Assembly (NCBI GenBank): GCA_037441705.1
Contig: JBBIRR010000041.1
Coordinates: 1 to 33,400, forward strand
Direction of reading: 5' to 3'
DNA from: Ignavibacteriales bacterium
Lineage (GTDB): Bacteria > Bacteroidota > Ignavibacteria > UBA10030 > UBA6906
Length of the DNA stretch: 33,400 bases
This document shows, in pieces, positions 6,699-33,400 of the stretch. Position 1 is the stretch's first letter. The number at the start of each line of letters is the position of its first letter. The notes below the pieces were generated by a model. The model had not been told where the DNA came from, ran no database searches, and saw only the letters and a list, made by a program, of their open reading frames with translations. A program made the position numbers and the translations under genes.

Positions 6699-6772
6699 GC
6701 CGACGTAGCTCAGCTGGTTAGAGCATCAGATTGTGGATCTGAGGGTCGTAGGTTCGAGTCCTACCGTCGGTA
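6699..6772 (+). tRNA. tRNA-His (GTG); no encoded G-1, G1:U72, A73, CCA not encoded
   Basis: Acceptor GCCGACG/CGTCGGT, D arm GCTC..GAGC, anticodon arm TCAGA-TTGTGGA-TCTGA, T arm GTAGG-TTCGAGT-CCTAC. Confidence 0.95.
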
Positions 6773-6977: not shown

Positions 6978-7054
6978 GGCGGGATAGCTCAGCTGGTTAG
7001 AGCGTCGGAATCATAATCCGTAGGTCGGGGGTTCGAATCCCTCTCCCGCTACCA
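6978..7054 (+). tRNA. tRNA-Met (CAT), most likely elongator
   Basis: GGCGGGA/TCCCGCT acceptor, A73, encoded CCA, anticodon loop ATCATAA, T arm GGGGG-TTCGAAT-CCCTC; lacks the initiator C1:A72 mismatch and the three G-C anticodon-stem pairs. Confidence 0.9.
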
Positions 7055-9804: not shown

Positions 9805-12800
9805 ATGTGTGCACGGTCGTTTAGCGGTTTCCTTCTTCTTGTCGTAACGATTTGTTCGTTAGGAGTTTCCCAACCAAAGATCAGGTTCTCCCACCTCTCC
9901 GTCCAGCAGGGGCTTTCGCAAAGCGCGGTCAACTGTATCTTTCAGGATCGCCAGGGGTTTATGTGGTTCGGAACGCAGGACGGTTTGAACCGCTACGACG
10001 GCTATTCGTTCAAAGTATTCAAACACAATCCTGCCGACACAGGCAGTATTAGTGACAACTTTATTGTCTCGATCAGCGAGGACAACGAAGGGGTGTTGTG
10101 GATTGAGACACTGAACACTCCCGCGGTGCTGAACCGCTTCGACGGATTGACAGAAACATTCGCCCGGCGCGTGAAGGACAGCGTTGACCTGAAAAACGCG
10201 CGGCGAAGTTCTGTCTTCTCGTCCCATGAGGATCAGCACGGCGTCCGGTGGGAAGGATCAGTTGGTGGAGGAGTGACGAGGCTCGACATGCGCACAGGAG
10301 CGAAGAAGGAGTACAAGCACGATGCGAAAGACCCCGGCAGCCTCAGCGACAATCGCGTGTACTCTGTGTACGGCGACCGCGCCGGCACAATTTGGGTGGG
10401 CACGCGTGAAGGTCTCGATCGCTACGACCCTTCGACCGACTCGTTCGTCCACTACAGGCATGATGATCGCGATCCGCATTCGTTGAGCGACAACTGGGTG
10501 TGGCCGATCGTTGAAGATCGCACGGGCGTCCTTTGGGTCGGTACGGCGCGCGGCGGCTTGAATCGGTTCGATCGGACGACGGGGCGGTTCACCACGTTCA
10601 AGCGTGACCCTTCCGACACGAGAAGCTTGAGCGACGATTTCGTCCTTTCCATTTATCAAGATCGCTCGGGGCTGATGTGGGTGGGAACGAGCGGGGACGG
10701 TCTCAACACCTTCCATCCCGAACTGAATGCCTTCCACACCTTTGCAAACGATCCCCGCAACCCAAACAGTTTAGCAGACAACACGATCCGCGCGATGTAC
10801 GTTGATCGGGCCGGCATCGCATGGATTGGCACGCCTGCGGGACTCGATCGCTTCGACCGCGAGCAAGGAACCTTCATTCATTACAAAATCAATCCGAAGA
10901 ATCCAAAAAGTCTTGGAGACATCCCGAACGTTCTGTTTGAAGATCGCGCAGGCGGGTTCTGGGTAGGGACGTTCAGCAACGGGCTTGACCGTCTCGACCG
11001 GGCGACAGGCACGTTTACGCATTTTCGTCGCGATCCCGCTCGGCCCAACAGCTTGAGCGACAACCGCATCTACGCGCTTGCTGAAGACCGCGTCGGGGCG
11101 TTGTGGGTGGGAACCTACGGTGGAGGCCTGAATCGCTTGGACCCCGCCACAGGAACGTTCAAAGTCTTCGCGTACGACCCTACCGGCAGAACAGGCCCAA
11201 CGGCAAAAGGAGTCTGGTCGCTCTGCGTTGACCACGAGGGCGTTCTGTGGGTGGGGACGTACGGCGGCGGGCTGAATCGGTTCGACCTTCATACGGAATC
11301 GTTCACGTCTTTCAAGCACAACAAAGACGATACAACAAGTATCAGCGACGATACGATCATCTCCATCTACGAGGATCGCTCGCACAGGTTGTGGGTGGGA
11401 ACGACGGCCGGGCTGAATCGTTTCGATCGGGCAACGCGAACCTTTACGCGTTATCGCGAGAAGGACGGGCTGCCCAACGATTTCATCTTCGGTATACTCG
11501 AAGATGGTAACGGACGATTGTGGTTAAGCACGAATAAAGGTCTCTCACGCTTCGACCCAGCCACATCAACGTTCCGTAACTACGACGTCAACGATGGCTT
11601 GCAGGGAAATGAGTTCAACCAGAATGCGTATGCCCGAAGCGGGCGAACAGGGGAGATGTACTTCGGGGGAGGCAACGGCTTCAACGTGTTCCACCCCGAG
11701 AGTGTGAAAGAGAACGCGTTTCTTCCGCCTGTGGTCATCAGCGGCTTCCGTCGCTACAATACCGATGATGCCGAGGGCAAGCCCATCGAAGAACGGGGAG
11801 TGCCATTGCGAGAGGGGATCGAACTGAGTTACAAGGACAACATTGCGACGTTCGACTTTTCCGCTCTGAGTTTCTACAACGCGTTCAAGAATCGCTACGC
11901 GTACAGGTTGGAAGGATTCAGCGAGAACTGGATTCAGCTCGGCACGACGCGCACCGCGACGTTCACCAATCTCGATGCAGGCGAGTATGTGCTTCACGTG
12001 CGAGGCTCGAACAATGACGGTTTGTGGAACGAGGACGGAGCTTCGCTACGCCTCGTCGTAACGCCGCCGTGGTGGAAAACGCGATGGGCATACGCTGCGT
12101 ATGTCTTGATCTTCTTCGGCATTCTGTACGAGTTACGGCGATTCGAAATCAACAGACGCGAGCAGAAGGCGCGCTTGCGCGAATCGGAGCTGCGTGCAAA
12201 AGCCGCCGAAGCCGAGAAGCGCGTGTTAGAAGTCGAAAACGAGCGGAAGACGAAAGAGCTGGAGGAGGCCCGAGAACTGCAGCTTTCGATGCTGCCGCGC
12301 GAGATTCCGAAGCTGCCGAACCTCGAGATCGCCGTCTTCATGAAAACCGCGACAGAAGTCGGCGGCGACTACTACGACTTCCATCTTACACCCGACGGAG
12401 TTCTCAGCGTCGCCTGCGGCGATGCGACGGGGCACGGCATGCAGGCAGGCACGGTGGTCACGTTGATGAAAGGCCTCTTCACCTCTGACGCGTCGCGGCT
12501 CGACATCAAGTCGTTCTTCAATCACAGCAGCCTCGCCATCAAAAACATCAAAATGGGCCGGCTGATGATGGCTTTCACAATGCTGAAAATCCACAACCGA
12601 CATGTGGCGTTTGCCTCTGCGGGCATGCCGCCCCTTTTTGTCTGGCGAGAGAAACAGGGCACGGTGGAGGAAATCCTGTTGAAGGGGATGCCGTTAGGTG
12701 CCATGAAGAATTTTCCGTATGTTGTGCATGAAGAAGAACTCCAGGCTGGCGACCTGCTCCTTGTTCTTTCCGACGGACTGCCGGAGCAAAAGAATGCAAC

Positions 12801-12966
12801 GGGTGAGATGTTTGATTATCTTCGTGTGCAGGAGACCCTGAAATCGGTTGCGAGGGAGACGCCCGGAAAAATTATCGAACGCCTCTGGAACGCAGCACAG
12901 ATGTGGATGAACGGCGCAACGCAAGAAGACGACATGACGATGATAGCGATACGGATGAAAGGGTGA
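9805..12966 (+). CDS. membrane sensor phosphatase: Reg_prop beta-propellers + Y_Y_Y + TM + SpoIIE/PP2C domain
   Basis: Signal peptide; many SLSDN..D..G.LWVGT..GGLNRFD repeats; YRLEGF..YVLHVRGSN; PPWW-TM; VGGDYYDF, GDATGHG, SDGL and EDDMT PP2C motifs. Confidence 0.93.
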   Translation: MCARSFSGFLLLVVTICSLGVSQPKIRFSHLSVQQGLSQSAVNCIFQDRQGFMWFGTQDGLNRYDGYSFKVFKHNPADTGSISDNFIVSISEDNEGVLWIETLNTPAVLNRFDGLTETFARRVKDSVDLKNARRSSVFSSHEDQHGVRWEGSVGGGVTRLDMRTGAKKEYKHDAKDPGSLSDNRVYSVYGDRAGTIWVGTREGLDRYDPSTDSFVHYRHDDRDPHSLSDNWVWPIVEDRTGVLWVGTARGGLNRFDRTTGRFTTFKRDPSDTRSLSDDFVLSIYQDRSGLMWVGTSGDGLNTFHPELNAFHTFANDPRNPNSLADNTIRAMYVDRAGIAWIGTPAGLDRFDREQGTFIHYKINPKNPKSLGDIPNVLFEDRAGGFWVGTFSNGLDRLDRATGTFTHFRRDPARPNSLSDNRIYALAEDRVGALWVGTYGGGLNRLDPATGTFKVFAYDPTGRTGPTAKGVWSLCVDHEGVLWVGTYGGGLNRFDLHTESFTSFKHNKDDTTSISDDTIISIYEDRSHRLWVGTTAGLNRFDRATRTFTRYREKDGLPNDFIFGILEDGNGRLWLSTNKGLSRFDPATSTFRNYDVNDGLQGNEFNQNAYARSGRTGEMYFGGGNGFNVFHPESVKENAFLPPVVISGFRRYNTDDAEGKPIEERGVPLREGIELSYKDNIATFDFSALSFYNAFKNRYAYRLEGFSENWIQLGTTRTATFTNLDAGEYVLHVRGSNNDGLWNEDGASLRLVVTPPWWKTRWAYAAYVLIFFGILYELRRFEINRREQKARLRESELRAKAAEAEKRVLEVENERKTKELEEARELQLSMLPREIPKLPNLEIAVFMKTATEVGGDYYDFHLTPDGVLSVACGDATGHGMQAGTVVTLMKGLFTSDASRLDIKSFFNHSSLAIKNIKMGRLMMAFTMLKIHNRHVAFASAGMPPLFVWREKQGTVEEILLKGMPLGAMKNFPYVVHEEELQAGDLLLVLSDGLPEQKNATGEMFDYLRVQETLKSVARETPGKIIERLWNAAQMWMNGATQEDDMTMIAIRMKG

Positions 12967-13074
12967 TAACGCGTGAGGGGGGAGGAGAGGGGCTTGTGCA
13001 GATACACCAGAGACTTGTCTCTCCAAGTCTGGGGTTGCTGCAAACAGACAAATCTGTCATGCATACGATCAATC

Positions 13075-13491
13075 ATGAATAACGAACTCACACTCAAGAT
13101 CGAACTGCCGAACGTGCCGGACATAGAACTCGTGGCGCTGGAAGGACTGGAGCGCCTCGGGCGGCACATGGGCATCGCCGACGGCAAGATCGCCGAAGGG
13201 CGCGTCCTTGTAACGGAGGCCATTATCAACGCGCTGGACCATACCGGCAAGGATCATCCCGTCGTGCAGGTAGAGTTCACGATGTCGAAAGAAGAACTGA
13301 CGATCTTCGTTCGCGACTATGGAAAGGGCTTCGCGCCGGATGCAATCCCGCGGCCCGACATTCGAACGAAGATCGGCGATCCGAATAAGCGCGGCTGGGG
13401 CTTGCATCTCATGAAGACGATGTCCGACGATTTTCGCATCGAGTCGCAGCCCACCGGAACCAAGATTACGCTCATCAAGAAACTTACATAG
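13075..13491 (+). CDS. anti-sigma factor serine kinase (RsbW/SpoIIAB-like HATPase)
   Basis: VTEAIINALDH, VRDYGKGF, RGWGLHLM and GTKITL; start at ATG 13075. Confidence 0.9.
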   Translation: MNNELTLKIELPNVPDIELVALEGLERLGRHMGIADGKIAEGRVLVTEAIINALDHTGKDHPVVQVEFTMSKEELTIFVRDYGKGFAPDAIPRPDIRTKIGDPNKRGWGLHLMKTMSDDFRIESQPTGTKITLIKKLT

Positions 13492-13501
13492 AGGATGATG
13501 G

Positions 13502-13855
13502 ATGGAACAGGAGTTCTCACTCACGCCCGTACTTCAGAACGATTGCCTTGTGATTGCAACGTCGGGATATGTCAATAACAAAGGGGGCGAGGCGATCGCG
13601 CGCGAGTTCAACAAACATTTTGAGCACGGCGTCAAGCGTGTCGTCATCAACCTTGCACAATCGAAGGTGGTCAACTCCATCGGCATGTCATTTCTGATCG
13701 AGATTATCGAGAAGTTGGAAGAAGCCGGAGGGCGCCTGGTGTTCACCAATCTCGATCCCGGAGTCGAGAAGATGCTTTCGATCATGGGACTGTTGAATTT
13801 TGCGGGGAAGGAAAAGACCGTTGACGACGCGTTGAAGTCTCTTTCTACCCAATAA
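13502..13855 (+). CDS. STAS-domain anti-sigma factor antagonist (RsbV/SpoIIAA-like)
   Basis: 117 aa; VVINL..VVNSIGMSFL (phospho-Ser motif variant); GGRLVF..VEKMLSIMGL. Confidence 0.9.
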   Translation: MEQEFSLTPVLQNDCLVIATSGYVNNKGGEAIAREFNKHFEHGVKRVVINLAQSKVVNSIGMSFLIEIIEKLEEAGGRLVFTNLDPGVEKMLSIMGLLNFAGKEKTVDDALKSLSTQ

Positions 13856-13868
13856 CAAAGGCTGCTTC

Positions 13869-15470
13869 GTGGCGCTGCCCCTGTTGGTAGAACGCTTGTC
13901 CGTTCAAATCGCTTCGCTGCAGGAGGGATTCGAGCTGCTTACGCGCGCTTCCAGCCAGAAGGAACTCGCGCGTCGGTTCTTTCACATTCTGCGCGGCAAC
14001 TTCGTCACCACGGATATCACGATCTATTACAAAACCACCGCAAGCGATCCCTGGCAGAAGCTCTACGGAAAGGCGACATGCGAAGGCGAGGAATATCTCG
14101 GCGGAACGCCTCCGGAATTTGTGTTGAAGAGTTATGGTGGAAAGAACCCAAAACTTGCCGTAGCGCAGCCGCTTATGGATGGGTCGTGTGTCGGCGTGAT
14201 TCTGGGACATAAGTTGGGCGGCGCCGCGCACTCCGCTCTTGACAAAATCTCCCTCCAAATCTTCCTGCAGGTATTTGCAACTGCGTATCAGGCCCTGTCA
14301 CAATATCGCAAGGAAAAGGAACTCATCTTTTCGCTGAACCATCGTCTCCTCCAGTTGAATAGCTTGATTGATACGGGAATAGAGTTGACGCGGCGGAAGA
14401 AGAATCTCGCGCCCGAAGCGTTTGCTTTACAGCGTGCCGCAGCGCTCACGAACGCATCCTGGGGAATGTTCCGGAAGAGAGTGGAGAAGGAAAACGTGGA
14501 GACGCTTGTGTTCCCCGAGGGCACACAGCCTCGCAGGTCGCGCAGCAAGCTGCATCATATTCGCTCCGGCTTTACGCTCCACGGAATCACCTACATTTTT
14601 GATTTGTATGAAAAGGAAAGTCGTGAGGGGACAATTCCGTTTGAAGAGACCGATCGTCTTCTGCTCGACGCAGTCGTCCAGCAAGTGTATGCCGTGGTCG
14701 AGAATGAATTTCGCCAGAAGCAGGAGTTGGAGAGACAGAAAATCGAGCAGGACATTGCGGTTGCGGCCTCGATTCAGCAGCGCATCCTTCCTGCTGAGCT
14801 TCCGCGCATTCAGGGATACGACATCTTCGGCATCAATATTCCCACGCGGGCAATTGGGGGCGATTACTACAACTGCATCCCGCTGAACGGCAGGGGGTAC
14901 GGATTGTTGATGGCCGATGTTGCCGGGAAAGGCGTTCCGGCCGCGCTGCTGGTCAGCAGTTTTCATGCATATCTTCACGCGTACCTGGACAACGTCGGCT
15001 CGCTGGTCGAGCTTGCACAGCGCCTCAATCAAGCCATATTCAGTGCATCGACGGCCGAGCGATACATTACTGCTGTGGTTGGCATCCTGCAGCCCGATCG
15101 CGGCGAGCTGCAGATGATCAATGCCGGACACAATCCCGTGTACGTACTGCGGGCAGATGGCACGGTCGAGGCGCTCAGCAAGGGAGGCATTGCGTTTGGA
15201 ATGATAGATATGGATTTCCCTTACGAAGTTGATTCGGTGACGCTTGCGCCGGGCGACCGTGTGCTGCTTTACACCGATGGAATTACGGAGGCGATGAATG
15301 CGCACGGAGAGCAGTACGACGCGCACGACGCCTTGCAGAGTTTCTTGCTTGCTCACCGACCGTCGTCGTCCGAAGCGTTTGTGCGCGGCCTGCTTGCTGA
15401 TGTCGCTTCCTTTACCGGCGCCGCTCCGCAGAGCGACGATATGACGGCGATGTATCTGATGCGCGGATGA
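13869..15470 (+). CDS. SpoIIE/RsbU-like PP2C phosphatase with degenerate GAF-like N-terminal region
   Basis: IQQRILP, IGGDYY, ADVAGKGVPAAL, NAGHNP, YTDGITEA and SDDMT. Confidence 0.9.
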   Translation: MALPLLVERLSVQIASLQEGFELLTRASSQKELARRFFHILRGNFVTTDITIYYKTTASDPWQKLYGKATCEGEEYLGGTPPEFVLKSYGGKNPKLAVAQPLMDGSCVGVILGHKLGGAAHSALDKISLQIFLQVFATAYQALSQYRKEKELIFSLNHRLLQLNSLIDTGIELTRRKKNLAPEAFALQRAAALTNASWGMFRKRVEKENVETLVFPEGTQPRRSRSKLHHIRSGFTLHGITYIFDLYEKESREGTIPFEETDRLLLDAVVQQVYAVVENEFRQKQELERQKIEQDIAVAASIQQRILPAELPRIQGYDIFGINIPTRAIGGDYYNCIPLNGRGYGLLMADVAGKGVPAALLVSSFHAYLHAYLDNVGSLVELAQRLNQAIFSASTAERYITAVVGILQPDRGELQMINAGHNPVYVLRADGTVEALSKGGIAFGMIDMDFPYEVDSVTLAPGDRVLLYTDGITEAMNAHGEQYDAHDALQSFLLAHRPSSSEAFVRGLLADVASFTGAAPQSDDMTAMYLMRG

Positions 15471-22509: not shown

Positions 22510-24339
22510 TTACCTCAAGTACACCATCTTCTTTGTCTGCGATTGATTGCCTACCCTGAGCGTGTAGTAATACACACCTCCAGCCAGATTTTCCGGTGAG
22601 AATTCTACAGTGTACTCGCCCGGTGTGCGGTAGTCGTTCAGCGGCGTTGCAACGACCTGCCCAAGGACGTTCGTCACCGTCAAGCTTACGTACGCCTCCT
22701 TCGGAATCGAGAATCGAATACGCGTTGATGGATTGAACGGATTGGGATAGTTCTGCTCAAGCTTGAACGATGACGGTTCCAAACCGCCTTCATCTACGCC
22801 TGTTGTTGTGAAGGTGTACGCAGCCACATAGACGTTCGTTTGCATGATGTTGTCAGGCGGCCAGGTATTGATGCCGGCCTGGTAACATCGGAACAGGAAG
22901 AGAGTGTAGCTGTTGCCCCCGTTCCATTTCACCGTCGGTGCAGCATGAAGCAGCATCTCCGCAAAATCCGGTGTTTGAGAGATGTTGATGGGTGTTGACC
23001 ATGACGGATCAGTAATCCTTCTGTACGAGAACCAAATTTCGGGCAGCGTATCGTTTGGTGAAAGCGAGGCTGCTTCAAGCCAGACAAACGTCATCAGTTG
23101 ACCATCGGAACTGATGGAGGCCTGAATGGAGTGATTGGTTTGACTCAGATTTCCTTGGGTTGGACTGGGATAGTACAAAACGGTTTGGCGCGCGAGGTTA
23201 CGCTTGATGAACTTCGCTTCCCAGCCGGTGGGCGTCTGGTAGACTTCAAGGAGGTGTCTCTGCTGCTGGTCGGTAGCAGGTGTGTCGGCCACCGGATAGA
23301 AGAAGTGCGCCATACCGTTCGCGTCGATCACCATGTCCGCATTGTAATCCACCGTGCCGCCCGGTGGTTGTGCGAAGTCGTACAGATCGTATGCAGCACC
23401 CAGGCCTGTTGCGATTCCCCAATCGGGTTGGGGTCGTATCCATGGCCCCCACGTCGCGCCATTATCGGTCGTGCGGCTGTAGCCAACGTTAAATGCGTTC
23501 GCAAGCGAGTCGGGATAGAACAACCCGTTGACCGCGAAGTAGCCGCCCTGATTGGTTGCCTTGCCAACGACAAAGCCGAGTGAGTTGATAAAATACGGAA
23601 TGGTATCGCGCCAGTGAGGAGGCGTTTGCCGTATCACCGTGAGATAGTCGTTCGTTCGCCATGTCAGATGGTCGTTCGGAATTCCGGACGCCAATCGACT
23701 CGATGCCCAGTTGACCCAATCGGAGTTTGGATAGCTCCAGATCGAGAGTGCAGCTGTGAGGTCGTTCGTTGCCGGATCCACCGTCGCAATTCCGGCCCCG
23801 GCACCGAGCGGAAAATCGACACCATACGTAATTTGCCCGAACGCACCGCCGTTGATAAGATTGGGCGCCGCCCATACAAAAAGTAGCTGCGACGTGTCGG
23901 CTGTACCCGCGGGGTTGGAAATCGTGCAACTCGGATAACGCAGGCTTTGCGGCGTTCCTCCGGAGAGTTCGCCTGCACGGTACCAGCTCACCCCGTTATT
24001 TCGTGAGACGTTGTACCATAGCTGACCGCTCGTTCCATACGGTGGAGCACCCCGGTGGATCAGCACCAGCGTGTTGCTCGCCTGATCGTATGCGAGTGGT
24101 TTGACTTGATCATTCGCGGGACCGAAGGCGTTGGCCATCGAGTCCACAAGAACCCAGTTCAGGACAAGCGGGTTGTCGAGTCCAGGGATGTACTGCCCGT
24201 TTCCCGTTGATGCGCGCGCGATGCCATCATCAATTGCGAGCGGTGCAGGTCGTGCATTGCGTAGGTCGAATCTCTTTCCGGCGAAAGAGAGTGACGTCGC
24301 AAGAGAGATACAGCAGGCAATGAGTAACGCCTTCCTCAT
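22510..24339 (-). CDS. secreted T9SS cargo protein with BNR/Asp-box beta-propeller-like body
   Basis: GGAGG SD and MRKALL.. signal peptide; Asp-box-like SRNNGVSW and TTDNGATW; CTD FKLEQNYPNPFNPST...GVYYYTL..KKMVYLR. Confidence 0.88.
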   Translation of the reverse strand: MRKALLIACCISLATSLSFAGKRFDLRNARPAPLAIDDGIARASTGNGQYIPGLDNPLVLNWVLVDSMANAFGPANDQVKPLAYDQASNTLVLIHRGAPPYGTSGQLWYNVSRNNGVSWYRAGELSGGTPQSLRYPSCTISNPAGTADTSQLLFVWAAPNLINGGAFGQITYGVDFPLGAGAGIATVDPATNDLTAALSIWSYPNSDWVNWASSRLASGIPNDHLTWRTNDYLTVIRQTPPHWRDTIPYFINSLGFVVGKATNQGGYFAVNGLFYPDSLANAFNVGYSRTTDNGATWGPWIRPQPDWGIATGLGAAYDLYDFAQPPGGTVDYNADMVIDANGMAHFFYPVADTPATDQQQRHLLEVYQTPTGWEAKFIKRNLARQTVLYYPSPTQGNLSQTNHSIQASISSDGQLMTFVWLEAASLSPNDTLPEIWFSYRRITDPSWSTPINISQTPDFAEMLLHAAPTVKWNGGNSYTLFLFRCYQAGINTWPPDNIMQTNVYVAAYTFTTTGVDEGGLEPSSFKLEQNYPNPFNPSTRIRFSIPKEAYVSLTVTNVLGQVVATPLNDYRTPGEYTVEFSPENLAGGVYYYTLRVGNQSQTKKMVYLR

Positions 24340-24401
24340 GGCGAACCTCCAGTTGTTGATTGATGTGATGAGTTCGAAGTGATGGTGAAAAACCACGGAC
24401 T

Positions 24402-25419: not shown

Positions 25420-27216
25420 ATGAAACTGCTCTTATCCTATTTAGAACACTATTGGAAGCTCGTGGTGGTGGCGCTGCTGCTTGCAGCCATCAACCAGACG
25501 TTTTCCCTTCTCGATCCGCTCATCTTTCGCTATATCATCGACGAGTACGTCACGCGCTTCAAAGAATACACGCGTGCCGATTTCCTCCGCGGCGTCGGGC
25601 TGCTGCTGCTCGCGGCGATGGGGGTTGCCTTCGTCTCGCGTGTGGCAAAGAACTTCCAGGACTACGTCATCAACGTCATCACGCAGCGCCTGGGAGCCCG
25701 CATCTACTCCGACGGCTTGCGGCATTCATTGGAGATGCCCTATCAAATGTTCGAGGATCAGCGCAGCGGCGAAACGCTGGGGAAGCTCCAGAAAGTCCGA
25801 ACCGACGTCGAAAAGCTGATTGCCGCGCTCATCAACATCCTGTTCCAATCGCTGGTCGGCATTATCTTCGTCATGGTCTATGCGTTCAGTGTTCATTGGC
25901 TGATCGCGATCGTATACTTTACTACGGTGCCGGCGCTTGGCCTGATCAGCTCCATCCTCAGCAGGAAGCTTAAGTCCATGCAGAAAGTGATCGTACGGGA
26001 AACCACGGCGCTCGCAGGGTCAACTACCGAGTCGTTGCGGAATATTGAGCTGGTCAAGAGTCTCGGCCTTGCACAACAGGAGATTGAACGACTCAACAGC
26101 ACGACGGACAAGATTCTCAGACTCGAGCTAAAGAAGGTGCGCTATCTGCGCAGCCTGAGTTTCATTCAGGGAACATCCGTAAACTTCCTCCGCACCACGA
26201 TTCTGGGCCTCATGCTCTACATGATTTTTGATCAACAGATTACGTTCGGTCAATTCTTCTCGCTCTGGATCTACTCGTTCTTCATCTTTGGGCCCCTGCA
26301 GGAACTCGGCAACGTCATCAACACCTATCGCGAAACGGAAGTATCGCTGAAAAACTTTGAAGAGATTCTCACCGCACAAAAGGAGGCAAAACCCGCGAAG
26401 CCCGTGAAGCTTGACACGATAGAATCGCTGGCATTTCAAAATGTTCGGTTCAAACACCTCTCCTCGACGAAGCATGCGCTCGCCGACATCTCGTTCGAGG
26501 TTCGGCGCGGAGAGACGATTGCATTTGTGGGTCCGTCAGGCTCCGGGAAGACCACACTCGTGAAGCTGCTCATCGGCTTGTATACTCCACACTCGGGAAC
26601 GATTCTGTACAACGGCTATCCGAGGGAGGTGATCGATCTCGAAGGCTTGCGCGAACGCATCGGGGTGGTTACTCAGGATACACAGTTGTTTTCGGGAACG
26701 ATTCGTGAGAACCTCCTCTTTGTGAATCCATCGGCGACGGATGCGGAGTGTCTCGAGGTATTGGAGAAAGCGGCATGCCAGAGCCTCCTTGCACGGGCCG
26801 ATAAGGGACTGGACACCCTGATTGGGGAGGGGGGCGTGAAGGTCTCAGGTGGAGAGAAACAGCGCCTCTCGATCGCACGAGCACTCCTGCGGCATCCGCA
26901 TCTCCTTGTGTTCGATGAAGCAACCTCGTCGCTCGATTCGCTGACCGAAGAGGAAATCAGTGAGACGATTCGTGATGTGTCCATGCAGAAAGACTTGATC
27001 ACCATTCTGATAGCGCATCGACTGTCGACGGTGATGCACGCCGATCGCATTCTTGTGCTGGAACGCGGAAGGATCGTTGAGGTCGGCCAGCATCAATCCC
27101 TGTTGGACCAGAAAGGCCTGTATTACGCCATGTGGCGTCAACAAATTGGTGAAAGGGAGGAAGAAAGACGTGACGGTGAAGGGCTGATGACGACTAACGT
27201 TCTGGCGAAGAACTAA
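25420..27216 (+). CDS. ABC exporter, fused permease + ATPase (MsbA/MdlB-like)
   Basis: N-terminal TM domain, GPSGSGKT, VSGGEKQR, VFDEATS and IAHRLST; likely start ATG 25420. Confidence 0.93.
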   Translation: MKLLLSYLEHYWKLVVVALLLAAINQTFSLLDPLIFRYIIDEYVTRFKEYTRADFLRGVGLLLLAAMGVAFVSRVAKNFQDYVINVITQRLGARIYSDGLRHSLEMPYQMFEDQRSGETLGKLQKVRTDVEKLIAALINILFQSLVGIIFVMVYAFSVHWLIAIVYFTTVPALGLISSILSRKLKSMQKVIVRETTALAGSTTESLRNIELVKSLGLAQQEIERLNSTTDKILRLELKKVRYLRSLSFIQGTSVNFLRTTILGLMLYMIFDQQITFGQFFSLWIYSFFIFGPLQELGNVINTYRETEVSLKNFEEILTAQKEAKPAKPVKLDTIESLAFQNVRFKHLSSTKHALADISFEVRRGETIAFVGPSGSGKTTLVKLLIGLYTPHSGTILYNGYPREVIDLEGLRERIGVVTQDTQLFSGTIRENLLFVNPSATDAECLEVLEKAACQSLLARADKGLDTLIGEGGVKVSGGEKQRLSIARALLRHPHLLVFDEATSSLDSLTEEEISETIRDVSMQKDLITILIAHRLSTVMHADRILVLERGRIVEVGQHQSLLDQKGLYYAMWRQQIGEREEERRDGEGLMTTNVLAKN

Positions 27217-27994
27217 GGAATGAATCGGCAAGGATCTGTTGTGTGAACGGATGCTTTGGGGATGATGCCAGTTCACGTGATGCGGCATGTTCGACGATCA
27301 CGCCGCCGTGCAGCACGGCAATGCGGTCGCACACACGCAATGCAGTATCGAGATCATGAGTGATGAGGAGGAGAGAAAGATGAAAACGATCTCGAATTTG
27401 AAGTAGGAGCGACAGAATCTGCCGTTGGGTGAGAAGGTCAAGGGCCGATGTCGGCTCATCGAGAATCAGAAGGGATGGCTGCGCAGCCAAAGCACGGGCA
27501 ATGGCGATGCGTTGGCGCTGGCCTCCGCTGAGCTGACCGGGCAACAAGGGCAGGAGATCGCTCTCTAGACCCATCGCTTCAAGAAGCTCGACCATCGCTT
27601 CTTCAAGGTCCGGTGCACCGGCGTGTGGGCGTGCTTCGAGTCCCTCACGCAAACAGTCTCTGACTGACATCATAGGATTAAGCGAAGCACTGCTTGCCTG
27701 AAAGACCATCTGCATCTCGGTGCGAAATCGTCTGCGGTTGTTCTCCTCGGGAAAGATGTTTACGGACTTGAAAAGGATCGAGCCGCGATCGGGCCTCTGA
27801 AGGCCCACAATGCATCGGGCGAGTGTTGACTTGCCGCTCCCGCTCGGTCCGACCAATCCCAGAATTTTTCCTTCCTCAAGAGAAAGCGAAACGTCGCTGA
27901 GTACAACGGCTCGCCTCGTAAGAAACCCTCGCCGGTGCGAAGGAACCATCGAGCATTGGAGATTCAGGATCAGCAGAAGCGGTACCTCAGGCAT
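27194..27994 (-). CDS. oligopeptide/dipeptide ABC importer ATPase, OppF/DppF-like
   Basis: GPSGSGKSTL, QMVFQ..SLNP, LSGGQRQR, LDEPTSALD and PKHPFT. Confidence 0.88.
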   Translation of the reverse strand: MPEVPLLLILNLQCSMVPSHRRGFLTRRAVVLSDVSLSLEEGKILGLVGPSGSGKSTLARCIVGLQRPDRGSILFKSVNIFPEENNRRRFRTEMQMVFQASSASLNPMMSVRDCLREGLEARPHAGAPDLEEAMVELLEAMGLESDLLPLLPGQLSGGQRQRIAIARALAAQPSLLILDEPTSALDLLTQRQILSLLLQIRDRFHLSLLLITHDLDTALRVCDRIAVLHGGVIVEHAASRELASSPKHPFTQQILADSFLSSSPER

Positions 27995-28799
27995 GAGCAG
28001 TAAGATGAGTGTTAGAACGGCTGACTCTGTCGTTCAAGGCCTTGAGCAGAAGTTGTGAATACGGATGCTGCGGCGTACGAAAGAACTCTTCGACGGATGC
28101 GTTTTCGATCAATGCACCGTCATGCATAACGGCAACTTCGTCTGCGAAGTGGCGAGCAAAGGCAAGATCGTGTGTCACAAGAATCATCGTCATGCGCTGC
28201 TTGGTTTGTATGGATCGAAGAAGCTTCAGGAGTTGCTTGCGCAGCGAAGCGTCGACGGCACTTGTTGGTTCGTCCGCAATCAATAGCCCTGGTTGCGGCA
28301 GCAGGGCCATGGCGATCATAACGCGCTGGGCCATTCCAACACTCAACTCGTGCGGATATCGTGACAGCACGTCTTCCGGTCGCTCCAAGCCGACCTCAGC
28401 CAGCACCTGCGTGATCTCAGCTTTTGTCGTTTCTCGCCTTCCGCAGGCAAGCAGCATTTGCTTTCCAATAGTGGAAACGGGATTCAACGCCGCGTACGGC
28501 TCTTGAAAAACATAGCGGATAGCATTCTGTCGCAGGTCAGCTAACTCCGAATCGCTACATGCCAGGATGTCCCTCGAATCGAATTGCACGCTTCCGGCTA
28601 TGTCTACGGCAGCGCGGGAGGGAAACAGCCGCGTCAGCGCGCGGCATAGCGTCGTCTTGCCACATCCACTTTCACCCACAAGCGCGAGAGCTTGACCCTT
28701 CAACAGCGAGAAATTGACGTCTCTAACGGCCGGTGACGGTGAGCTGCCTGAGAGATACTTCACCGTAAGTCCACGCACTTCTATCAGGTTCTGTTGCAT
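27987..28799 (-). CDS. oligopeptide/dipeptide ABC importer ATPase, OppD/DppD-like
   Basis: MQQNLIEVRGLTVKY, VGESGCGKT, FQEP..ALNP, YPHELSVGMAQR, ADEPT and PQHPYS; ATG 28799. Confidence 0.9.
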   Translation of the reverse strand: MQQNLIEVRGLTVKYLSGSSPSPAVRDVNFSLLKGQALALVGESGCGKTTLCRALTRLFPSRAAVDIAGSVQFDSRDILACSDSELADLRQNAIRYVFQEPYAALNPVSTIGKQMLLACGRRETTKAEITQVLAEVGLERPEDVLSRYPHELSVGMAQRVMIAMALLPQPGLLIADEPTSAVDASLRKQLLKLLRSIQTKQRMTMILVTHDLAFARHFADEVAVMHDGALIENASVEEFFRTPQHPYSQLLLKALNDRVSRSNTHLTAHA

Positions 28800-29064
28800 T
28801 TCAAAATTTGTTGGAAACTTGCCGGTATAATACTGATTTCTTGGGGCGGGAGTGTGACCTGGAACGAACTGGCTTAATCTACGCAATATTACGTATTTTT
28901 GGCGGTTATCATCGTAAAAAATTGCTAAATGCTATGAAAATCCACTTGCTAATGATTAGTGATTGTTCTATGATTTTCGGCGAAAGGGGGAAGATGATTG
29001 CTAAAGTCTTTCCTTGTTGCACCAACCTAATTCACTCATGTTTCAAAAGTGAAGGAAGTCCCCC

Positions 29065-29403
29065 ATGGCAAAAACCAAATTCCTTTTGGTGATCTCGGCA
29101 ATTCTGCTTTTCGCCGGGATTGCCGTCTGCCAGGAGAGCGTGGAGCAGGCCGTTCGCGTTAGACTGGCAGAAGCTTCACCGCCATTGGTTAATTTAGGGG
29201 CTGTGAGTGTAAATGATGAACTCATTACCCCGTTCGTCCAACAAATCAACATGAGGTCCGCCTCTCAAGTAGAAGCTCTCGGCAGCCAGTACGGCTTCGG
29301 GCGTTCCGCTTCGCAGGTGGAAGCTCTCGGCAGTCAGTATGGCTTCGGGCGTTCTGCTTCGCAGGTGGAAGCTCTCGGCAGTCAGTATGGCTTCGGGCGT
29401 TAG
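29065..29403 (+). CDS. secreted multicore peptide precursor: signal peptide + about 42-aa pro-region + 3x SASQVEALGSQYGFGR
   Basis: GAAGGAAG SD; MAKTKFLLVISAILLFAGIAVC|Q signal peptide; three amino-acid-identical repeats with only synonymous DNA differences; terminator downstream. The CDS call is confident; the function is inferred. Confidence 0.85.
   Translation: MAKTKFLLVISAILLFAGIAVCQESVEQAVRVRLAEASPPLVNLGAVSVNDELITPFVQQINMRSASQVEALGSQYGFGRSASQVEALGSQYGFGRSASQVEALGSQYGFGR
29257..29400 (+). repeat. 3 x 48-nt tandem coding repeat
   Basis: Units 29257-29304, 29305-29352 and 29353-29400; 6 third-position changes between units 1 and 2, and 1 between units 2 and 3. Confidence 0.97.
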
Positions 29404-29488: not shown

Positions 29489-29525
29489 AAGCCTTCAATG
29501 TGAGAAATATTGAAGGCTTTTTTTT
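29489..29525 (+). terminator. intrinsic terminator after the precursor gene
   Basis: AAGCCTTCAAT-gtgagaaat-ATTGAAGGCTT followed by a T-run. Confidence 0.8.
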
Positions 29526-29561
29526 ATCGTATACAAGTCTTGCAACCTTCTTGAGAGTTTC

Positions 29562-32501
29562 TTGAGATTCATTTCGCTGGTGATCTGCCTCCTGGCCGCG
29601 GACCACAACGCGTTTCCTGCCGAACAGTTGACAACGCAGTGGTACGAATCGGAGAGTCCGCATTTCCGGATTGTGTACAAGCCCGGCCACGCTCATCTTG
29701 TTCATCATATTCTTGGCTCGGCGGAAAGAGCGCTAGACAGGCTGACCGAGCTGTTTCACTACACACCCTCAGAGAAAATCGTCATCAACACGTACGATGT
29801 CAATGATTACGGCGCCGGGAGTGCTACGACTGTCCCCCGCAACTACCTCTGGCTGGATCTTGCACCTCTCGAACCCGGCTATGAAAACATCCCGTATAAC
29901 GAGCGCATTCAATGGCTGATCAACCATGAACTTGTTCACGTCGTGGTAAATGATCTTGCGACCAACGTCGAAGCTTTCAGTCGTTCCATCTTTTCAAAAG
30001 TTGCTCCTGAACAAGTGCAGCCACTCACGATTCTCTACAGCGTGCTCACCAACTATGGCCGCTACACACCCCGCTGGCACCAGGAAGGTATTGCTGTGTT
30101 TCTGGAAACCTGGTTGAGCGGCGGATTCGGTCGAACGCTCGGCAGTTTTGATGAAATGTATTTCCGCTCTCTGGTTGCCGAAGGCAGACCTTTCCCGTCC
30201 GACATTCTCCTCGAAACGCAGGTTTCTCATAATTCCTTCCTCGTGGAGACTACATATTATCTGTTTGGCGAACGGTTTGTCGCTCACCTTGCCCTACGAT
30301 ACGGGCCGGACAAAATCTTACGATGGTACACAGCTTCTGCTGCCGATCTATACAAGACGTTCAAAGAGAAGTTCAAAGAGGTTTTCGGATCGGATTTCGA
30401 TACCGCATGGCAGGAATTCGTTCAAGCGGAGAAGCAGTTTCAGGAACTCAACCTCACCCGACTTCGCTCCGCGCCCGTTACGCCTGTTGTGCGGCTTACA
30501 GCTCAGCCGATTGGGGCAATCTCGCAACCACATGCAACCTTTGAGGGCGACACGTTGTATTGGGGTGAGCATCGTCCGCATCATCTCGCCGCCATAGGGC
30601 GATTCGTTCGCGCGTCGGCGATATGCGGGGACGTGTCCACACTGCCGACACCGAGTATGCACCAGGTTGCCTCGACCGCTTTCGACCCAAGTACGGGAAA
30701 GTTCTTTTACACTACGAAAAATAACCAACTCTACAGAGACCTCTGGATGCTCGATGTCCATTCGAACGAGCGCAAACTCCTGTTCGAAAATGCTCGGGTG
30801 GGTCATCTTACAGTTGCCGCGTCCACTCATGAGTTGTGGGGAATACGACACAGCGGGGGCGCTGCGTGGCTTGTGTACTCACCTTTTCCGTATGATTCAC
30901 TCGTTCAGCTTCGCTATTTCGACATCGGCGATGAAGTGCATGGGCTGGCCGTTGATCCGTCGGGCCGCACGCTTGCTGTTGTGGTGCACAAAGCCAACGG
31001 CGATCAAGGGATTCTAACGGTCTCCACAGATGTCCTCAAAACAGGTGGCTCGCCGGCATATAACGTGATCACTGACAAGGGGTCTCCGGAAAACCCCAGC
31101 TGGAGTCGCGATGGTAGGACGCTTTACTGGAATGCCTACACGAATGGTGTATCGAATATCTATAAGATGAGCGGTGAGGACATGAAAGTCGTCCCCGTCT
31201 CGCATACGCTCGTTGGGTTATTCAAGCCGATAGAAATTCATCGCGACACGCTCTTCGCCTTTGAGTTTTCCACGGAGGGTTTTATCCCCGTTCTTATTGC
31301 GAACGCGCATGCCGAGCGCCTTCCCGCAATCCAATATCTTGGTCAGCAAATTTATGAGGCATATCCTACTGTCGGGAGTTGGACCTTGCAGCAGGGGGTG
31401 AACAACGACAGTCTCGGCCCCGTCATGCGTACTGAGTACAATGGCTTCCGCCATCTCAGTATCGTGGCTTTCATGCCGGTGATTACAGGCTTCCAATCGA
31501 AGAAAGTGTTAGGACTTTTTGCCCGCATTTCTGATCCAATTCTCAACCACGACGTGACGCTTGAGACCGGCTTTTCCCCATTTGGTGAGAGGCATCAGCC
31601 GACGGACTTCCATCTAAAATTGAAATACGAATACAAGAAAGAATGGGAAGTGGGGTGGGAGTTCAACGGGCCGGACTTTTACGACCTGTTCAACAGCCGA
31701 AAGCGCGGGATGCTCGGAAGTAAGTTCCGCTTCGGGAACACAACCTACTGGATTTACGACAATCCCCATAAGCTCAAACAACAGACTGAGATCACTTTTT
31801 ATACGGGAGTGCAGTTTATCAACGACAACCTTGTGCGCGTCTCCACGCCTGATTTTGTTGTCGCGCAGACTGCTCTTACCTCACAGAGTCTCCGCAGAAC
31901 GATCGGCAGCAGCGACTATGAGAGCGGAAACGAGTATGCTATCACAGCAATGTTCTTCGGCTCTGACCCTCGTAATCCCCAAACGGGGTTTCAGCTCTAC
32001 GGAGAATGGGACAGGTTCACGCCGTATATTGTGCCGCATAATGTCTTGCATTTCAAGATTGCAGCAGGGTATCATGAGGCGCATTCGCGGCTTCGGCAAT
32101 CGCGGTTTTTCTTCGGCGGCTTTGGCAATCGTGAACTCGAAAATGTGGACGCGAAGCAATTCCGGAAGGTGTTTCGCTTTCCCGGCATTCCTATCTATTC
32201 GTTTGGTGTGGATCGGTTTGTAAAGCTGATGGTCGAAAACAATTTTCCTCCCCTCAGGTTTGGCGATGTCTCGCTCGGTCAGCACTTCATGAACCATCTC
32301 GATGCGTCCGTGTACGCCAACGTCTTGCTTACCAACACAAGCCGATGGCTTGGCGCAAGTGTGGGTGCGCAGGCAAATATTGTCTTCAAGCATTGGTCCA
32401 ACCTCGAATCCACTCTGTCCGTCGGCGCAGCGAGGGCCTGGCAGCGCAGTTCTCCGTCGAGCGACTGGTTCATTTCATTCAAGCTGCTGCGTAACAATTG
32501 A
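29562..32501 (+). CDS. exported 979-aa protein: clan MA (gluzincin-like) zinc peptidase + TolB/PD40-like propeller + putative C-terminal outer-membrane beta-barrel
   Basis: TTG start; N-terminal hydrophobic leader; ESPHFRIVY, INHELVH, PRWHQEG; NPSWSRDGRTLYW..NGVSNIY (PD40-like); aromatic alternating strands and FFFGGFG in the C-terminal third. Confidence 0.8.
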   Translation: MRFISLVICLLAADHNAFPAEQLTTQWYESESPHFRIVYKPGHAHLVHHILGSAERALDRLTELFHYTPSEKIVINTYDVNDYGAGSATTVPRNYLWLDLAPLEPGYENIPYNERIQWLINHELVHVVVNDLATNVEAFSRSIFSKVAPEQVQPLTILYSVLTNYGRYTPRWHQEGIAVFLETWLSGGFGRTLGSFDEMYFRSLVAEGRPFPSDILLETQVSHNSFLVETTYYLFGERFVAHLALRYGPDKILRWYTASAADLYKTFKEKFKEVFGSDFDTAWQEFVQAEKQFQELNLTRLRSAPVTPVVRLTAQPIGAISQPHATFEGDTLYWGEHRPHHLAAIGRFVRASAICGDVSTLPTPSMHQVASTAFDPSTGKFFYTTKNNQLYRDLWMLDVHSNERKLLFENARVGHLTVAASTHELWGIRHSGGAAWLVYSPFPYDSLVQLRYFDIGDEVHGLAVDPSGRTLAVVVHKANGDQGILTVSTDVLKTGGSPAYNVITDKGSPENPSWSRDGRTLYWNAYTNGVSNIYKMSGEDMKVVPVSHTLVGLFKPIEIHRDTLFAFEFSTEGFIPVLIANAHAERLPAIQYLGQQIYEAYPTVGSWTLQQGVNNDSLGPVMRTEYNGFRHLSIVAFMPVITGFQSKKVLGLFARISDPILNHDVTLETGFSPFGERHQPTDFHLKLKYEYKKEWEVGWEFNGPDFYDLFNSRKRGMLGSKFRFGNTTYWIYDNPHKLKQQTEITFYTGVQFINDNLVRVSTPDFVVAQTALTSQSLRRTIGSSDYESGNEYAITAMFFGSDPRNPQTGFQLYGEWDRFTPYIVPHNVLHFKIAAGYHEAHSRLRQSRFFFGGFGNRELENVDAKQFRKVFRFPGIPIYSFGVDRFVKLMVENNFPPLRFGDVSLGQHFMNHLDASVYANVLLTNTSRWLGASVGAQANIVFKHWSNLESTLSVGAARAWQRSSPSSDWFISFKLLRNN

Positions 32502-32608: not shown

Positions 32609-33400
32609 ATGAAGACCATTTGTCTGGCAAAGCGATGGCTTGCCTTTGGAGCTGTTGCTTGCACACTTCTCGGGGGATGTCAGGGGAAACAGCACGATGA
32701 CAGGACGGCGGTCACCATCGCGGTTGAAGGAGATATCGACACTTTCAATCCGATATTCACCGAAGAACTTGTCTCTGCCCAAATCACTGAGCTCCTCTTT
32801 CCGCGCCTTGTAGAGCCCGAGTTCGACACCACTCGCGGCGCGCTCACGTTTTCTCCGCTCTTCGCTTCCGCTTGGGACTTCTCCGACGATCGACGGGAGG
32901 TGACATTCCATCTTCGCAGTGACGCATTCTGGAGCGACGGCGTCCGTGTCACTGCCCGTGATGTCCAATTCTCCTTCGAGCTTTATGCAGACACCGTTGT
33001 TGCAAGCGTGCGGCAAGATGCCGTTCACAACCTGCGCAGGACGAATGGGCGAGTAGATATTGCGACGAGTGTTGTCCCGCTGAATGACTCCACCGTGGTC
33101 TTTCGATTCGAGAAAGCTTCACCGAGCCAGTTGTTTGATGTCGGCGTTCCGATCGTTCCCAGCCACATTCTCAGCAGCGTTCCTCGCAACCGGCTGCGTG
33201 AACATTCATTCAACAAATCGCCTGTTACATCGGGACCCTTTGTGCTGGAACGGCACGTTCCGCTTCAGGAAATCGTCCTGGCTGCGAACAAGTCTGGTTG
33301 GTGCGGCATCAAACCGAATCTCTCCCACCTCGTGTTCAAAGTCCTCCCCGATTACAGATCACGCGTCGCACAACTTGAATCAGGGGAAGTGGACATCGTC
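32609..33400 (+). CDS. family-5 ABC substrate-binding lipoprotein (OppA/DppA-like), truncated by the window end; absent from the ORF track
   Basis: Manual translation MKTICLAKRWLAFGAVACTLLGG|CQGK (lipobox)..DIDTFNP..VTFHLRSDAFWSDGVRVTARDVQFSF..PVTSGPF..QLESGEVDIV. Confidence 0.92.
   Translation, partial: MKTICLAKRWLAFGAVACTLLGGCQGKQHDDRTAVTIAVEGDIDTFNPIFTEELVSAQITELLFPRLVEPEFDTTRGALTFSPLFASAWDFSDDRREVTFHLRSDAFWSDGVRVTARDVQFSFELYADTVVASVRQDAVHNLRRTNGRVDIATSVVPLNDSTVVFRFEKASPSQLFDVGVPIVPSHILSSVPRNRLREHSFNKSPVTSGPFVLERHVPLQEIVLAANKSGWCGIKPNLSHLVFKVLPDYRSRVAQLESGEVDIV

Follow-up and report, generated by a model that had tools for sequence, protein, structure and literature searches.

We analysed a stretch of 33,400 nucleotides (nt) from an Ignavibacteriales bacterium (assembly GCA_037441705.1, contig JBBIRR010000041.1, positions 1 to 33,400; hereafter, the window). 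Near its end, the forward strand carries a small open reading frame (ORF) of 112 amino acids (aa) (29065..29403, taken from the ORF list with its translation), and a gene for a 979-aa protein (29562..32501) starts 159 nt downstream of the small-gene stop codon. The small ORF comprises a putative signal peptide, a conserved head, a variable linker, and an array of identical units, and it is best explained as the substrate half of a conserved two-gene module. The signal peptide (residues 1–22, MAKTKFLLVISAILLFAGIAVC|Q; 29065..29130) was judged by reading the sequence together with an alignment of relatives. The basic n-region, the 16-residue hydrophobic core, and the AVC|Q site that the first-pass annotation of this DNA had pointed out are all apparent in the sequence; all three regions (n, h, and c) recur in 13 aligned relatives, as does a small-x-small site with Gln after it, and the cleavage site there reads A-x-[SC], then Q or H. 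The head (residues 26–33; 29140..29163) has the motif V-E-x-A-x-R-x-R, which may serve as a docking element; V26, A29, R31, and R33 are invariant in the 13 sequences, and V and the first R are so in a wider set of 19. The linker (residues 34–64; 29164..29256) is poorly conserved in the alignment and ends in Arg, and of the 13 relatives, 11 have R or K immediately before the array, one has M, and one has S. Three exact 16-aa units (SASQVEALGSQYGFGR; 29257..29400) follow, so that the layout described in the first pass, a pro-region of about 42 aa ending in Arg and then three exact units, was confirmed by translation and by a repeat-finding script. A ribosome-binding site (AAGGAAG) lies 7 nt 5' of the small-gene ATG. 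Scans of the small protein against Pfam and NCBIfam matched no family, and an Rfam scan of the window returned two tRNA genes (6699–6772 and 6978–7051, forward strand) and nothing at the small-gene locus.

Tandem Repeats Finder reported a 48-nt period with 3.0 copies at 29257–29401. Three units are a lower bound, because an independent 38,920-base contig from a run of the possible source sample holds two units (29307 is joined to 29356, skipping 48 nt), and contigs of a related strain break at the array. The two-unit version matches protein P0001. In the related strain (95–99% alike, from a run of another study), contigs with a depth of about 8–9 in the flanks stop at the array, and the same run yielded repeat unitigs of 47–60 nt with a depth of 24–66. 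Units 1 and 2 of the window differ at six bases and units 2 and 3 at one, and all seven differences are third-position and synonymous, as had been counted before (binomial p = 3.8e-5, with about 23% of random single-base changes being synonymous for the unit codons). The same holds across the family: 35 distinct arrays with 266 units contain 448 variant codons, of which 386 are synonymous, versus 23% expected. These counts are not independent events; their direction is unambiguous, and the peptide sequence of every unit is under selection. The earlier suggestion of selection on the peptide rather than slippage is thereby borne out.

A word-indexed protein search found eight close relatives with 1, 2, 3, 4, or 5 units, and a profile search of 1.84 billion representatives returned 144 at E <= 0.001 (76 at E <= 1e-10). 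Most of the 144 are proteins of 72–300 aa that are matched from residue 1; two long proteins among them (P0066 and P0079) were, on reading, unrelated repeat proteins. Whole relatives span 72–350 aa and have the same head, so the small ORF is not a truncated fragment of a longer repeat protein, a possibility that had been raised against it. Of 401 sampled genomes of the phylum, 16 have a match at E <= 0.01, all in one class, Ignavibacteria, with Ignavibacteriaceae and Melioribacteraceae represented according to named records. Weak matches in two genomes (G361 and G365) were rejected as unrelated, one being a 397-aa trypsin-type-like protein and the other having no repeat ORF. The common plan is a signal peptide, the VExAxRxR head, a variable linker, and units with the consensus S-x-[ST]-Q-[LVI]-[ED]-[EA]-[LM]-G-x-[RKQ..]-[YFLW]-x-[FWY]-x-[RK..], in which conservation is highest in the core Q-L-x-E-L-G-x-x-[YF]-x-[FW] and not at the boundary. 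Copy number ranges from 1 to 18: there are single-unit members of 74–80 aa, and 8–18 units occur on contigs of 170–570 kb in long assemblies, with short-read assemblies frequently breaking within the array. In most family proteins, the C-terminus coincides with the end of a unit. Among the relatives, P0005 scores 29.0 bits against the Pfam ALTTAQ repeat (PF20080; cut-off 26.4 bits), and the window protein and the five other relatives scanned fall below this cut-off. The small family is undescribed and unannotated in Ignavibacteria.

The downstream partner gene encodes a predicted signal peptide and three domains, which an AlphaFold2 model based on 27 homologues (pLDDT 84.9, pTM 0.84) resolves as a gluzincin domain (aa 24–305), a six-bladed TolB-like propeller (aa 309–580), and a BamA-like beta-barrel (aa 633–978). 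H122, E123, and H126 of the motif HELVH, together with E175 of W-x-Q-E-G-x-A, are invariant in 27 of 27 sequences. In fold comparisons, the modelled N-domain matches lugdulysin (Z 15.9), puromycin-sensitive aminopeptidase (Z 14.4), tricorn factor F3 (Z 13.8), M1 peptidases (Z 13–14), collagenases (about Z 11), and thermolysin (Z 10), and Foldseek paired it with IRAP (E 1.3e-5). HExxH, a downstream Glu, and a thermolysin-like fold are what defines a gluzincin metallopeptidase of clan MA(E), and the predicted N-domain has all three. The first-pass annotation had seen no modifying enzyme in the window, which overlooked this conserved HExxH protein starting at 29562. The modelled propeller is closest to TolB (Z 22.8), and the barrel region, with about 16 long strands in the model, matches BamA of Deinococcus radiodurans (Z 19.2, 286 residues aligned), the only non-propeller among the top 50 fold matches to the partner; Atlas look-alike clusters of the partner include Omp85.

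At the sequence level, Pfam recognised PD40 in the partner, and Peptidase_MA_2 scored below its cut-off (E 0.0028); the Omp85 model gave no score on the partner itself, and a profile of the partner barrel aligned to the Omp85 domain of a paralog at E 0.066 (hhalign). Foldseek with the whole model returned a list filled by propellers, and sequence and profile searches of the PDB with the whole partner, the N-domain, and the C-domain gave nothing useful. The paralog, a 1033-aa protein encoded elsewhere in the window genome (G000, contig C13; L189:708-3806, forward strand), has Peptidase_MA_2, PD40, and Omp85 above the Pfam cut-offs and aligns to the partner N-domain at E 5e-8. It has no repeat gene upstream, where its neighbour is, by reading, ribonuclease R-like. 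In another family of the class (f12; L039, L041–L045), the large protein has an extra N-terminal region of about 240 residues. A WD40-Omp85 subfamily of Omp85/TpsB, its function unknown there, is mentioned in the accessible text of Heinz and Lithgow 2014 (PMC4104836) and shares with the partner a TolB-like propeller before an Omp85 barrel; here, a predicted zinc peptidase precedes both, and a repeat gene is coupled to the large gene.

To describe the pairing of the two genes, we compared 301 genomes of the class, 90 of which match the large protein at E <= 1e-10 in three identity tiers. The closest tier (>= 47% identity) comprises 14 further genomes, of which 12 also match the small protein in the phylum search; of the remaining two, G580 lies outside the phylum sample, and G285, with no small-protein match, has its large gene cut by the contig start. 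Wherever the contig permits, the small gene in this tier is directly upstream on the same strand. In the second tier (28–34% identity, full length), the upstream repeat protein is membrane-anchored and has 330–450 aa or more; its units of 8, 9, 12, or 26 residues are wholly different between genomes, and a conserved motif (GTIGG-x-K-A-x-K-Y-R-x-x-Q) stands just past the anchor. The third tier (20–25% identity) aligns over the first 575 residues only, and the window genome's own example is without an upstream repeat gene.

A scan of one genome per species found at least 588 relatives of the partner N-domain, and upstream ORFs were examined for the best 80 of them, 56 of which had at least 700 nt upstream. 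An upstream repeat, periodic, or motif ORF is present at 54 of these 56 loci (20 of the 16-mer type, 20 with an anchored motif and repeats, 13 periodic without the motif, and one with the motif only); of the other two, L098 is a true miss, and at the second the script had mis-picked the large ORF. Named records place these relatives in Ignavibacteria, Chlorobi, Calditrichaeota, KSB1, Acidobacteriota, Latescibacterota, Krumholzibacteriia, and Eiseniibacteriota. As a side observation, the clusters L046–L060 and L126–L165 (Acidobacteriota, KSB1, Latescibacterota, Chlorobi, and others), in which anchored proteins with hypervariable units of 5–27 residues stand before the large-protein relatives amid ECF sigma, anti-sigma, STAS, RsbW-like, and PrsW genes, look like an undescribed regulated-proteolysis module.

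Two ATP-binding cassette (ABC) ATPase genes of the oligopeptide/dipeptide type (27194..28886, reverse strand; ABC_tran, weak oligo_HPY) are divergent from the small gene, and the same ATPase pair flanks the cluster in three other genomes (G145, G097, and G580). Downstream, the 5' part of a gene for a family-5 solute-binding protein of the OppA/DppA type (32609..33400, forward strand; SBP_bac_5, E 6.6e-37) is cut by the contig end. Its 3' part lies at the end of contig C44 of the same genome, followed by genes for a permease, a 1260-aa Pkinase-AAA_16-TPR protein, a sigma-54 activator, a 192-aa lipoprotein, a GAF-HATPase protein, a PP2C phosphatase, and a second GAF-HATPase protein. The order in the window's genus is divergent Opp/Dpp ATPases, small gene, large gene, family-5 binding protein, and permeases. 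In f12 and one genus of a further family (f7), it reads ATPases, binding protein, permeases, kinase-TPR, sigma-54 activator, small gene, large gene, GAF kinase, and hybrid kinase. Opp genes, the kinase-AAA-TPR gene, and the sigma-54 activator stand beside the pair in three families (f1, f12, and f7) with differing gene orders. A second f7 genus has an OPT oligopeptide transporter, a TPR-CHAT protein, and a divergent pair of extracytoplasmic function (ECF) sigma and anti-sigma genes, with a prolyl oligopeptidase downstream. That unrelated oligopeptide transporters of two kinds, and likewise two different TPR proteins, occupy the same place speaks for a functional connection with peptide uptake and sensing. 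By Pfam, no radical-SAM, YcaO, lanthipeptide, or similar enzymes were found among the window and cluster genes.

Of 27 distinct small genes, 10 have an upstream sigma-54-type promoter element (-24/-12) that matches at least 8 of 10 consensus letters, and seven have one that matches at least 9, compared to 2.3% and 0.55%, respectively, of random 250-nt pieces of the same loci. Two loci (L064 and L117) have a perfect TGGCAC-N5-TTGC, and the good sites of relatives lie at -70 to -120. In the window, a weak sigma-54-like -24/-12 element (GG-N10-GC, 7 of 10 consensus letters; 28987..29002, forward strand), 78 nt before the ATG, is only a candidate because it is not conserved in the window's genus. 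A sigma-70-like promoter candidate (TTGCTA-17-TATGAT; 28946..28974, forward strand) is at chance level, with one site found versus 0.8 expected in shuffled sequences. Between the small and the large gene lies a 13-bp hairpin with a T-run (29489..29527, forward strand, in one delimitation 29489–29519; stem AAGCCTTCAAT..ATTGAAGGCTT), and the stem is kept in all four genomes of the window's genus. A hairpin with a T-run follows 21 of the 27 small genes, mostly with the same stem letters; of the six others, four run off the contig and one has masked bases. Such a conserved terminator is as expected for a highly expressed precursor accompanied by a less expressed processing gene. Two further properties of this stem deserve mention: its letters are nearly constant across genera and families (e.g., L117:1625-1660), which is unusual for a terminator, and it is a perfect palindrome that could double as a protein-binding site. 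Elsewhere in the window, a partner-switching set (9805–15467, forward strand) consists of a 1053-aa Reg_prop/Y_Y_Y-SpoIIE phosphatase, an RsbW-like HATPase_c_2 protein, a 117-aa ORF, and a second SpoIIE phosphatase, and a 628-aa protein (22510–24396, reverse strand) has a C-terminal sorting domain for type IX secretion and is otherwise without recognised domains.

A further link comes from the lipoprotein of the same cluster, which lies outside the window (192 aa; contig C44 of the window genome, L167:4143-4718, reverse strand). Its C-terminus, ...INHFSQYGFGRLQ, repeats the C-terminal half of the unit (LGSQYGFGR). Homologues are found at L168, L169, L170, L171, and L128:2-355 (reverse strand), and tail and unit change together: HFSQYGFGR stands against the unit end LGSQYGFGR in the window genome, HFSIYGFGR against LGSIYGFGR in G009, HFSMYAFGR against a unit that begins LGSM before the contig ends in G317, HFSIYGWCR against LGSIYGWSR in another lineage (L128), and HFSAYGFGR against LGSAYIFGR in G145, where the tail belongs to a weak paralog on another contig. 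Database homologues of the lipoprotein add tails with Q, A, A, I, and I. The match is kept at the protein level and not by gene conversion, because the codons of tail and unit differ (Ser TCN versus AGY, Arg AGG versus CGT). Distant homologues of the lipoprotein domain, many of them without a 16-mer gene, end in HFSRYGW.., HFSRYGFTK, or HFSRYGFGF, which is the core of the majority unit. The unit peptide thus mirrors the C-terminal tail of a whole protein family; in the genus, the two co-vary, which points to a shared binding partner.

The unit also resembles the beta-signal of outer-membrane proteins, given in the accessible text of PMC10945584 as polar-x-G-x-x-[aromatic/hydrophobic]-x-[aromatic/hydrophobic]. 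The unit positions E-x-G-x-x-[YFW]-x-[FWY] fit this pattern, as does the majority unit (E-L-G-S-R-Y-G-F); G is invariant in the family and E nearly so, and the window unit (A-L-G-S-Q-Y-G-F) has a first position that is not polar. The pattern is loose, with an estimated chance of about 10% of a match somewhere in a 16-residue unit, and the fit, seen next to a gene for a BamA-like barrel, is suggestive.

Our leading account of the locus, which we hold tentatively and would place somewhat short of an even chance, is that a Sec-exported multi-copy precursor is cut by the neighbouring outer-membrane zinc peptidase into identical peptides, which in Ignavibacteria act as signals. The small protein would be exported by Sec and lose its signal peptide, and its VExAxRxR head would dock on the 979-aa neighbour. 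The latter would sit in the outer membrane by means of its BamA-like barrel, with the zinc peptidase and the TolB-like propeller in the periplasm, and the peptidase would cut the array into many copies of one peptide of about 16 residues, by a rule other than Arg/Gly. In Ignavibacteria, the adjacent Opp-type ABC importer may take these peptides into the cell, where the cluster's Ser/Thr kinase, which has AAA and TPR domains, would read them, act on the sigma-54 activator, and so drive the small gene's own promoter in a feedback loop. This account draws on the family, the selection pattern, the pairing, the partner fold and catalytic residues, synteny, promoters, and terminators, and from these we infer docking, cleavage, uptake, sensing, and feedback. 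A more detailed version would make the system a diderm counterpart of Gram-positive pheromone signalling: a sigma-54-driven gene encodes up to 18 peptide copies, the Omp85-fused peptidase recognises the beta-signal-like core, cuts, and releases, the peptides return through Opp with feedback through the TPR-kinase, the matched Q/I/M/A changes represent pherotype divergence, and the lipoprotein tail is a tethered pseudo-ligand. This version strikes us as unlikely.

Several observations weigh against processing into signal peptides. No cleavage site stands out as conserved: units end in R, K, T, D, or Y, and internal Arg is common. A peptide of 1.7 kDa would need a route through the outer membrane in both directions, the TPR protein of the cluster (Pkinase, AAA_16, and TPR; about 1200 aa) does not belong to the RRNPP family, and the window's genus has no convincing sigma-54 site. 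One relative, P0027 (299 aa), has diverged, non-identical units of about 15 residues (..QLxELGPFGWNQ..) and a Gly-rich tail, which suits a repeat domain better than a polyprotein. The synteny comes from three families of one class and represents few independent events, and the 13 periodic upstream ORFs are mostly from high-GC genomes, several of them Ala-rich, so that some of the periodicity may be compositional. Lastly, in most other phyla an anchored repeat protein occurs with an ECF sigma factor and PrsW, which speaks for regulated proteolysis, in which the cut and not the product would matter.

This last point leads to the strongest competitor, according to which the repeat protein is a proteolytic sensor substrate reporting the state of the envelope: a fuse or decoy for the outer-membrane peptidase, whose fragments are recycled through Opp as food, with units imitating the beta-signal so that their fate reports the load on barrel assembly. 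We regard this as a serious possibility, if on the unlikely side. Precedents exist in the regulated proteolysis of anti-sigma factors, in which DegS/RseA reads the YxF ends of outer-membrane proteins, and in PrsW/RsiW. Like these, the distant relatives of the module occur with ECF sigma and anti-sigma factors and PrsW, and the units contain Y-x-F. Clusters of the 28–34% tier contain GAF-PP2C, an RsbW-like kinase, STAS, ECF sigma, a single-pass anti-sigma, the anchored repeat protein, the large protein, a PrsW-family protease, and often an M55 peptidase; at three loci (L053, L054, and L058), an anti-sigma-like head is fused to the repeat protein, and the ECF sigma/anti-sigma pair of the second f7 genus adjoins a 16-mer gene. 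The conserved unit positions also fit the beta-signal consensus (PMC10945584, accessible text), and the modelled partner has a BamA-like barrel. However, the window protein has neither an anchor nor an adjacent sigma factor, and its protease is of another family and predicted to be in the outer membrane. The small proteins of Ignavibacteria have a cleavable signal peptide and no anchor, so that no signal can cross the membrane through the substrate itself, and exact unit identity under purifying selection is not needed for a degradation substrate. The beta-signal fit is tempered by the chance level estimated above, and the relatedness of the head motifs of 16-mer and membrane-anchored proteins, for which a common origin is plausible, appears in hhalign in the expected register but with a probability of 7.8%.

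In two-partner secretion (TPS; TpsA/TpsB, e.g., FHA/FhaC), a gene for an Omp85-type barrel adjoins that of a cargo with an N-proximal recognition element. By analogy, the barrel could move the long repeat protein to the surface or into the medium as a matrix, adhesive, or coat, with the peptidase removing the head only. The gene arrangement is alike, with a barrel gene beside a presumed cargo that has an N-proximal motif; the modelled barrel matches BamA (Z 19.2), the look-alike clusters include Omp85, and array length is highly variable, as in surface repeat proteins. Nevertheless, a TPS domain in the small protein and POTRA domains in the partner are both absent by Pfam, the partner model having a peptidase and a propeller instead; moreover, the putative cargo is very small and repetitive, and a protease forms part of the transporter. 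At 74–80 aa, the single-unit members are not long enough to be structural, structural repeats are seldom strictly identical, and the regulatory and peptide-uptake context would be left unexplained. Export of this kind is improbable in our view.

The beta-signal likeness and the lipoprotein would take on another meaning if the released units were antibacterial, jamming BamA of competing diderms, with the matching-tail lipoprotein as immunity factor or decoy. The unit fits the beta-signal pattern, and it shares its co-varying end with the cluster lipoprotein. In vitro, peptides with a beta-signal inhibit the assembly of barrels (PMC10945584), and protein antibiotics deliver a C-terminal beta-signal mimic to BamA (bioRxiv 10.64898/2026.09.25.754295), as far as the accessible texts of both sources go. 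Such mimics, and darobactin (via PMC10945584, accessible text), share with the unit a short peptide of the beta-signal pattern, and the lipoprotein is a folded domain ending in such a peptide. The pattern match here is weak evidence on its own, and antibacterial action would be a prediction at most. Linear peptides without modification inhibit only weakly in the in vitro work cited, and they have no evident entry route into a target cell. Moreover, no bacteriocin-type exporter or immunity gene was recognised in the cluster, and a context of sigma-54 activator, kinase, and Opp is atypical of bacteriocin loci. Taken as a whole, an antibacterial role is very improbable.

The mechanism proposed in the first-pass annotation, in which Arg-specific cleavage and trimming of basic residues leave Gly to be converted into a C-terminal amide (..QYGF-amide), has hardly any standing left. 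Its premises had been read correctly from the window ORF, in which Arg precedes each unit and the units contain no other basic residue, and in the window's genus every unit is Arg-bounded and Gly-Arg-ended. Outside the genus, Gly-Arg is not kept: units end in FTR, FVR, FLR, WSR, WGK, WAT, WST, or WGD, variants of 15, 17, and 18 residues end in Tyr or Asn, and in place of conserved dibasic sites, the boundaries show one R or K, or else T, D, or Y. An Arg-specific protease cannot be the rule of the family, because most relatives carry internal Arg or Lys (LGSRYGF) at a position where the window's genus has Q, A, I, E, or M. Homologues that do not conserve the boundary Arg and Gly had been named at the outset as grounds for giving up the model, and the boundary is lost for Gly and partly for Arg. 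Six Peptidase_C25 (gingipain-family) genes (893–1730 aa) do exist in the window genome, but all lie on other contigs (C19, C36, C49, and C75), unlinked to the locus, and the conserved neighbour is a predicted metallopeptidase, not C25 or S8. C-terminal amidation has no support: no amidating-enzyme family was matched, and the search of the window genome for copper monooxygenase (PF01082) is uninformative, as control genomes were likewise silent. A PAL propeller among the fold matches of the partner was discarded as evidence for amidation, since it is tied with about 50 six-bladed propellers and has no weight. What stands of the prohormone-like precursor is its secreted multi-copy design, with 1–18 units, a conserved head, codon drift, proteins that mostly stop at a unit end, a terminator of the gene's own, and a dedicated peptidase gene after it; its Arg/Gly chemistry does not. 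Finally, an assembly or slippage artefact without function, to which the differing copy number between assemblies of the same data might point, is refuted by the conservation of the family in three families of the class, the purifying selection on the units, and the conserved partner, and we give it practically no credence.

Processing of a multi-copy precursor by the neighbouring peptidase, our preferred account, has its nearest parallels outside diderms. Bacillota are known to have pheromone propeptides with tandem duplications that extracellular proteases mature (PMC11343458, accessible text), and the RRNPPA propeptides (Rap-Phr, Bacillus phages) combine, much as is proposed here, Sec-type export, several C-terminal peptide copies, non-cytoplasmic proteases, an Opp importer, and a TPR protein. 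The window protein appears to share the propeptide features of a small Sec-type protein with the mature peptide at its C-terminal end. The differences are considerable: the host is a diderm, up to 18 exact 16-residue units replace two or three of pentapeptide scale, a dedicated protease is fused to an outer-membrane barrel, the output would run via a sigma-54 activator, and the system is known from sequence alone. The 1200-aa kinase-AAA-TPR protein is not an RRNPP receptor, and it is not always adjacent, lying in the window genome beyond the opp genes on contig C44. Eukaryotic polyprotein precursors, such as those of neuropeptides, yeast alpha-factor, and Kex2-processed repeat proteins, likewise consist of a signal peptide, a pro-region, and tandem units in variable copy number. 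They share with the small family identical units kept by selection with codon drift, whereas dibasic sites, a kexin or convertase, and a conserved Gly donor are missing from the latter, the candidate enzyme being the adjoining gluzincin. Precursors of ribosomally synthesized and post-translationally modified peptides (RiPPs) differ in that the window protein has a Sec-type signal peptide and its cluster, by Pfam, no modifying enzymes. A literature search that did not cover supplements (e.g., Table S3 of PMC4104836) found no description of the small family or the module. We consider the module new in kind, because every family tested fails on a defining feature; what it does we infer.

Peptide signals that are made on ribosomes, imported, and then read in the cytoplasm characterise Gram-positive bacteria, and in the literature searched we found no multi-copy Sec-exported precursor with its own outer-membrane processing machine described for diderms. 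The module also offers a likely substrate for a widespread and uncharacterised Omp85 branch, composed of peptidase, propeller, and barrel, that extends over Bacteroidota, Acidobacteriota, Calditrichota, and a number of candidate phyla. A connection with the biogenesis of outer-membrane proteins is suggested by the beta-signal-like core and by the lipoprotein tail that co-varies with the unit. The small protein and its protease make a directly testable pair, and their pairing suggests a possible bacterial way to many copies of one short peptide.

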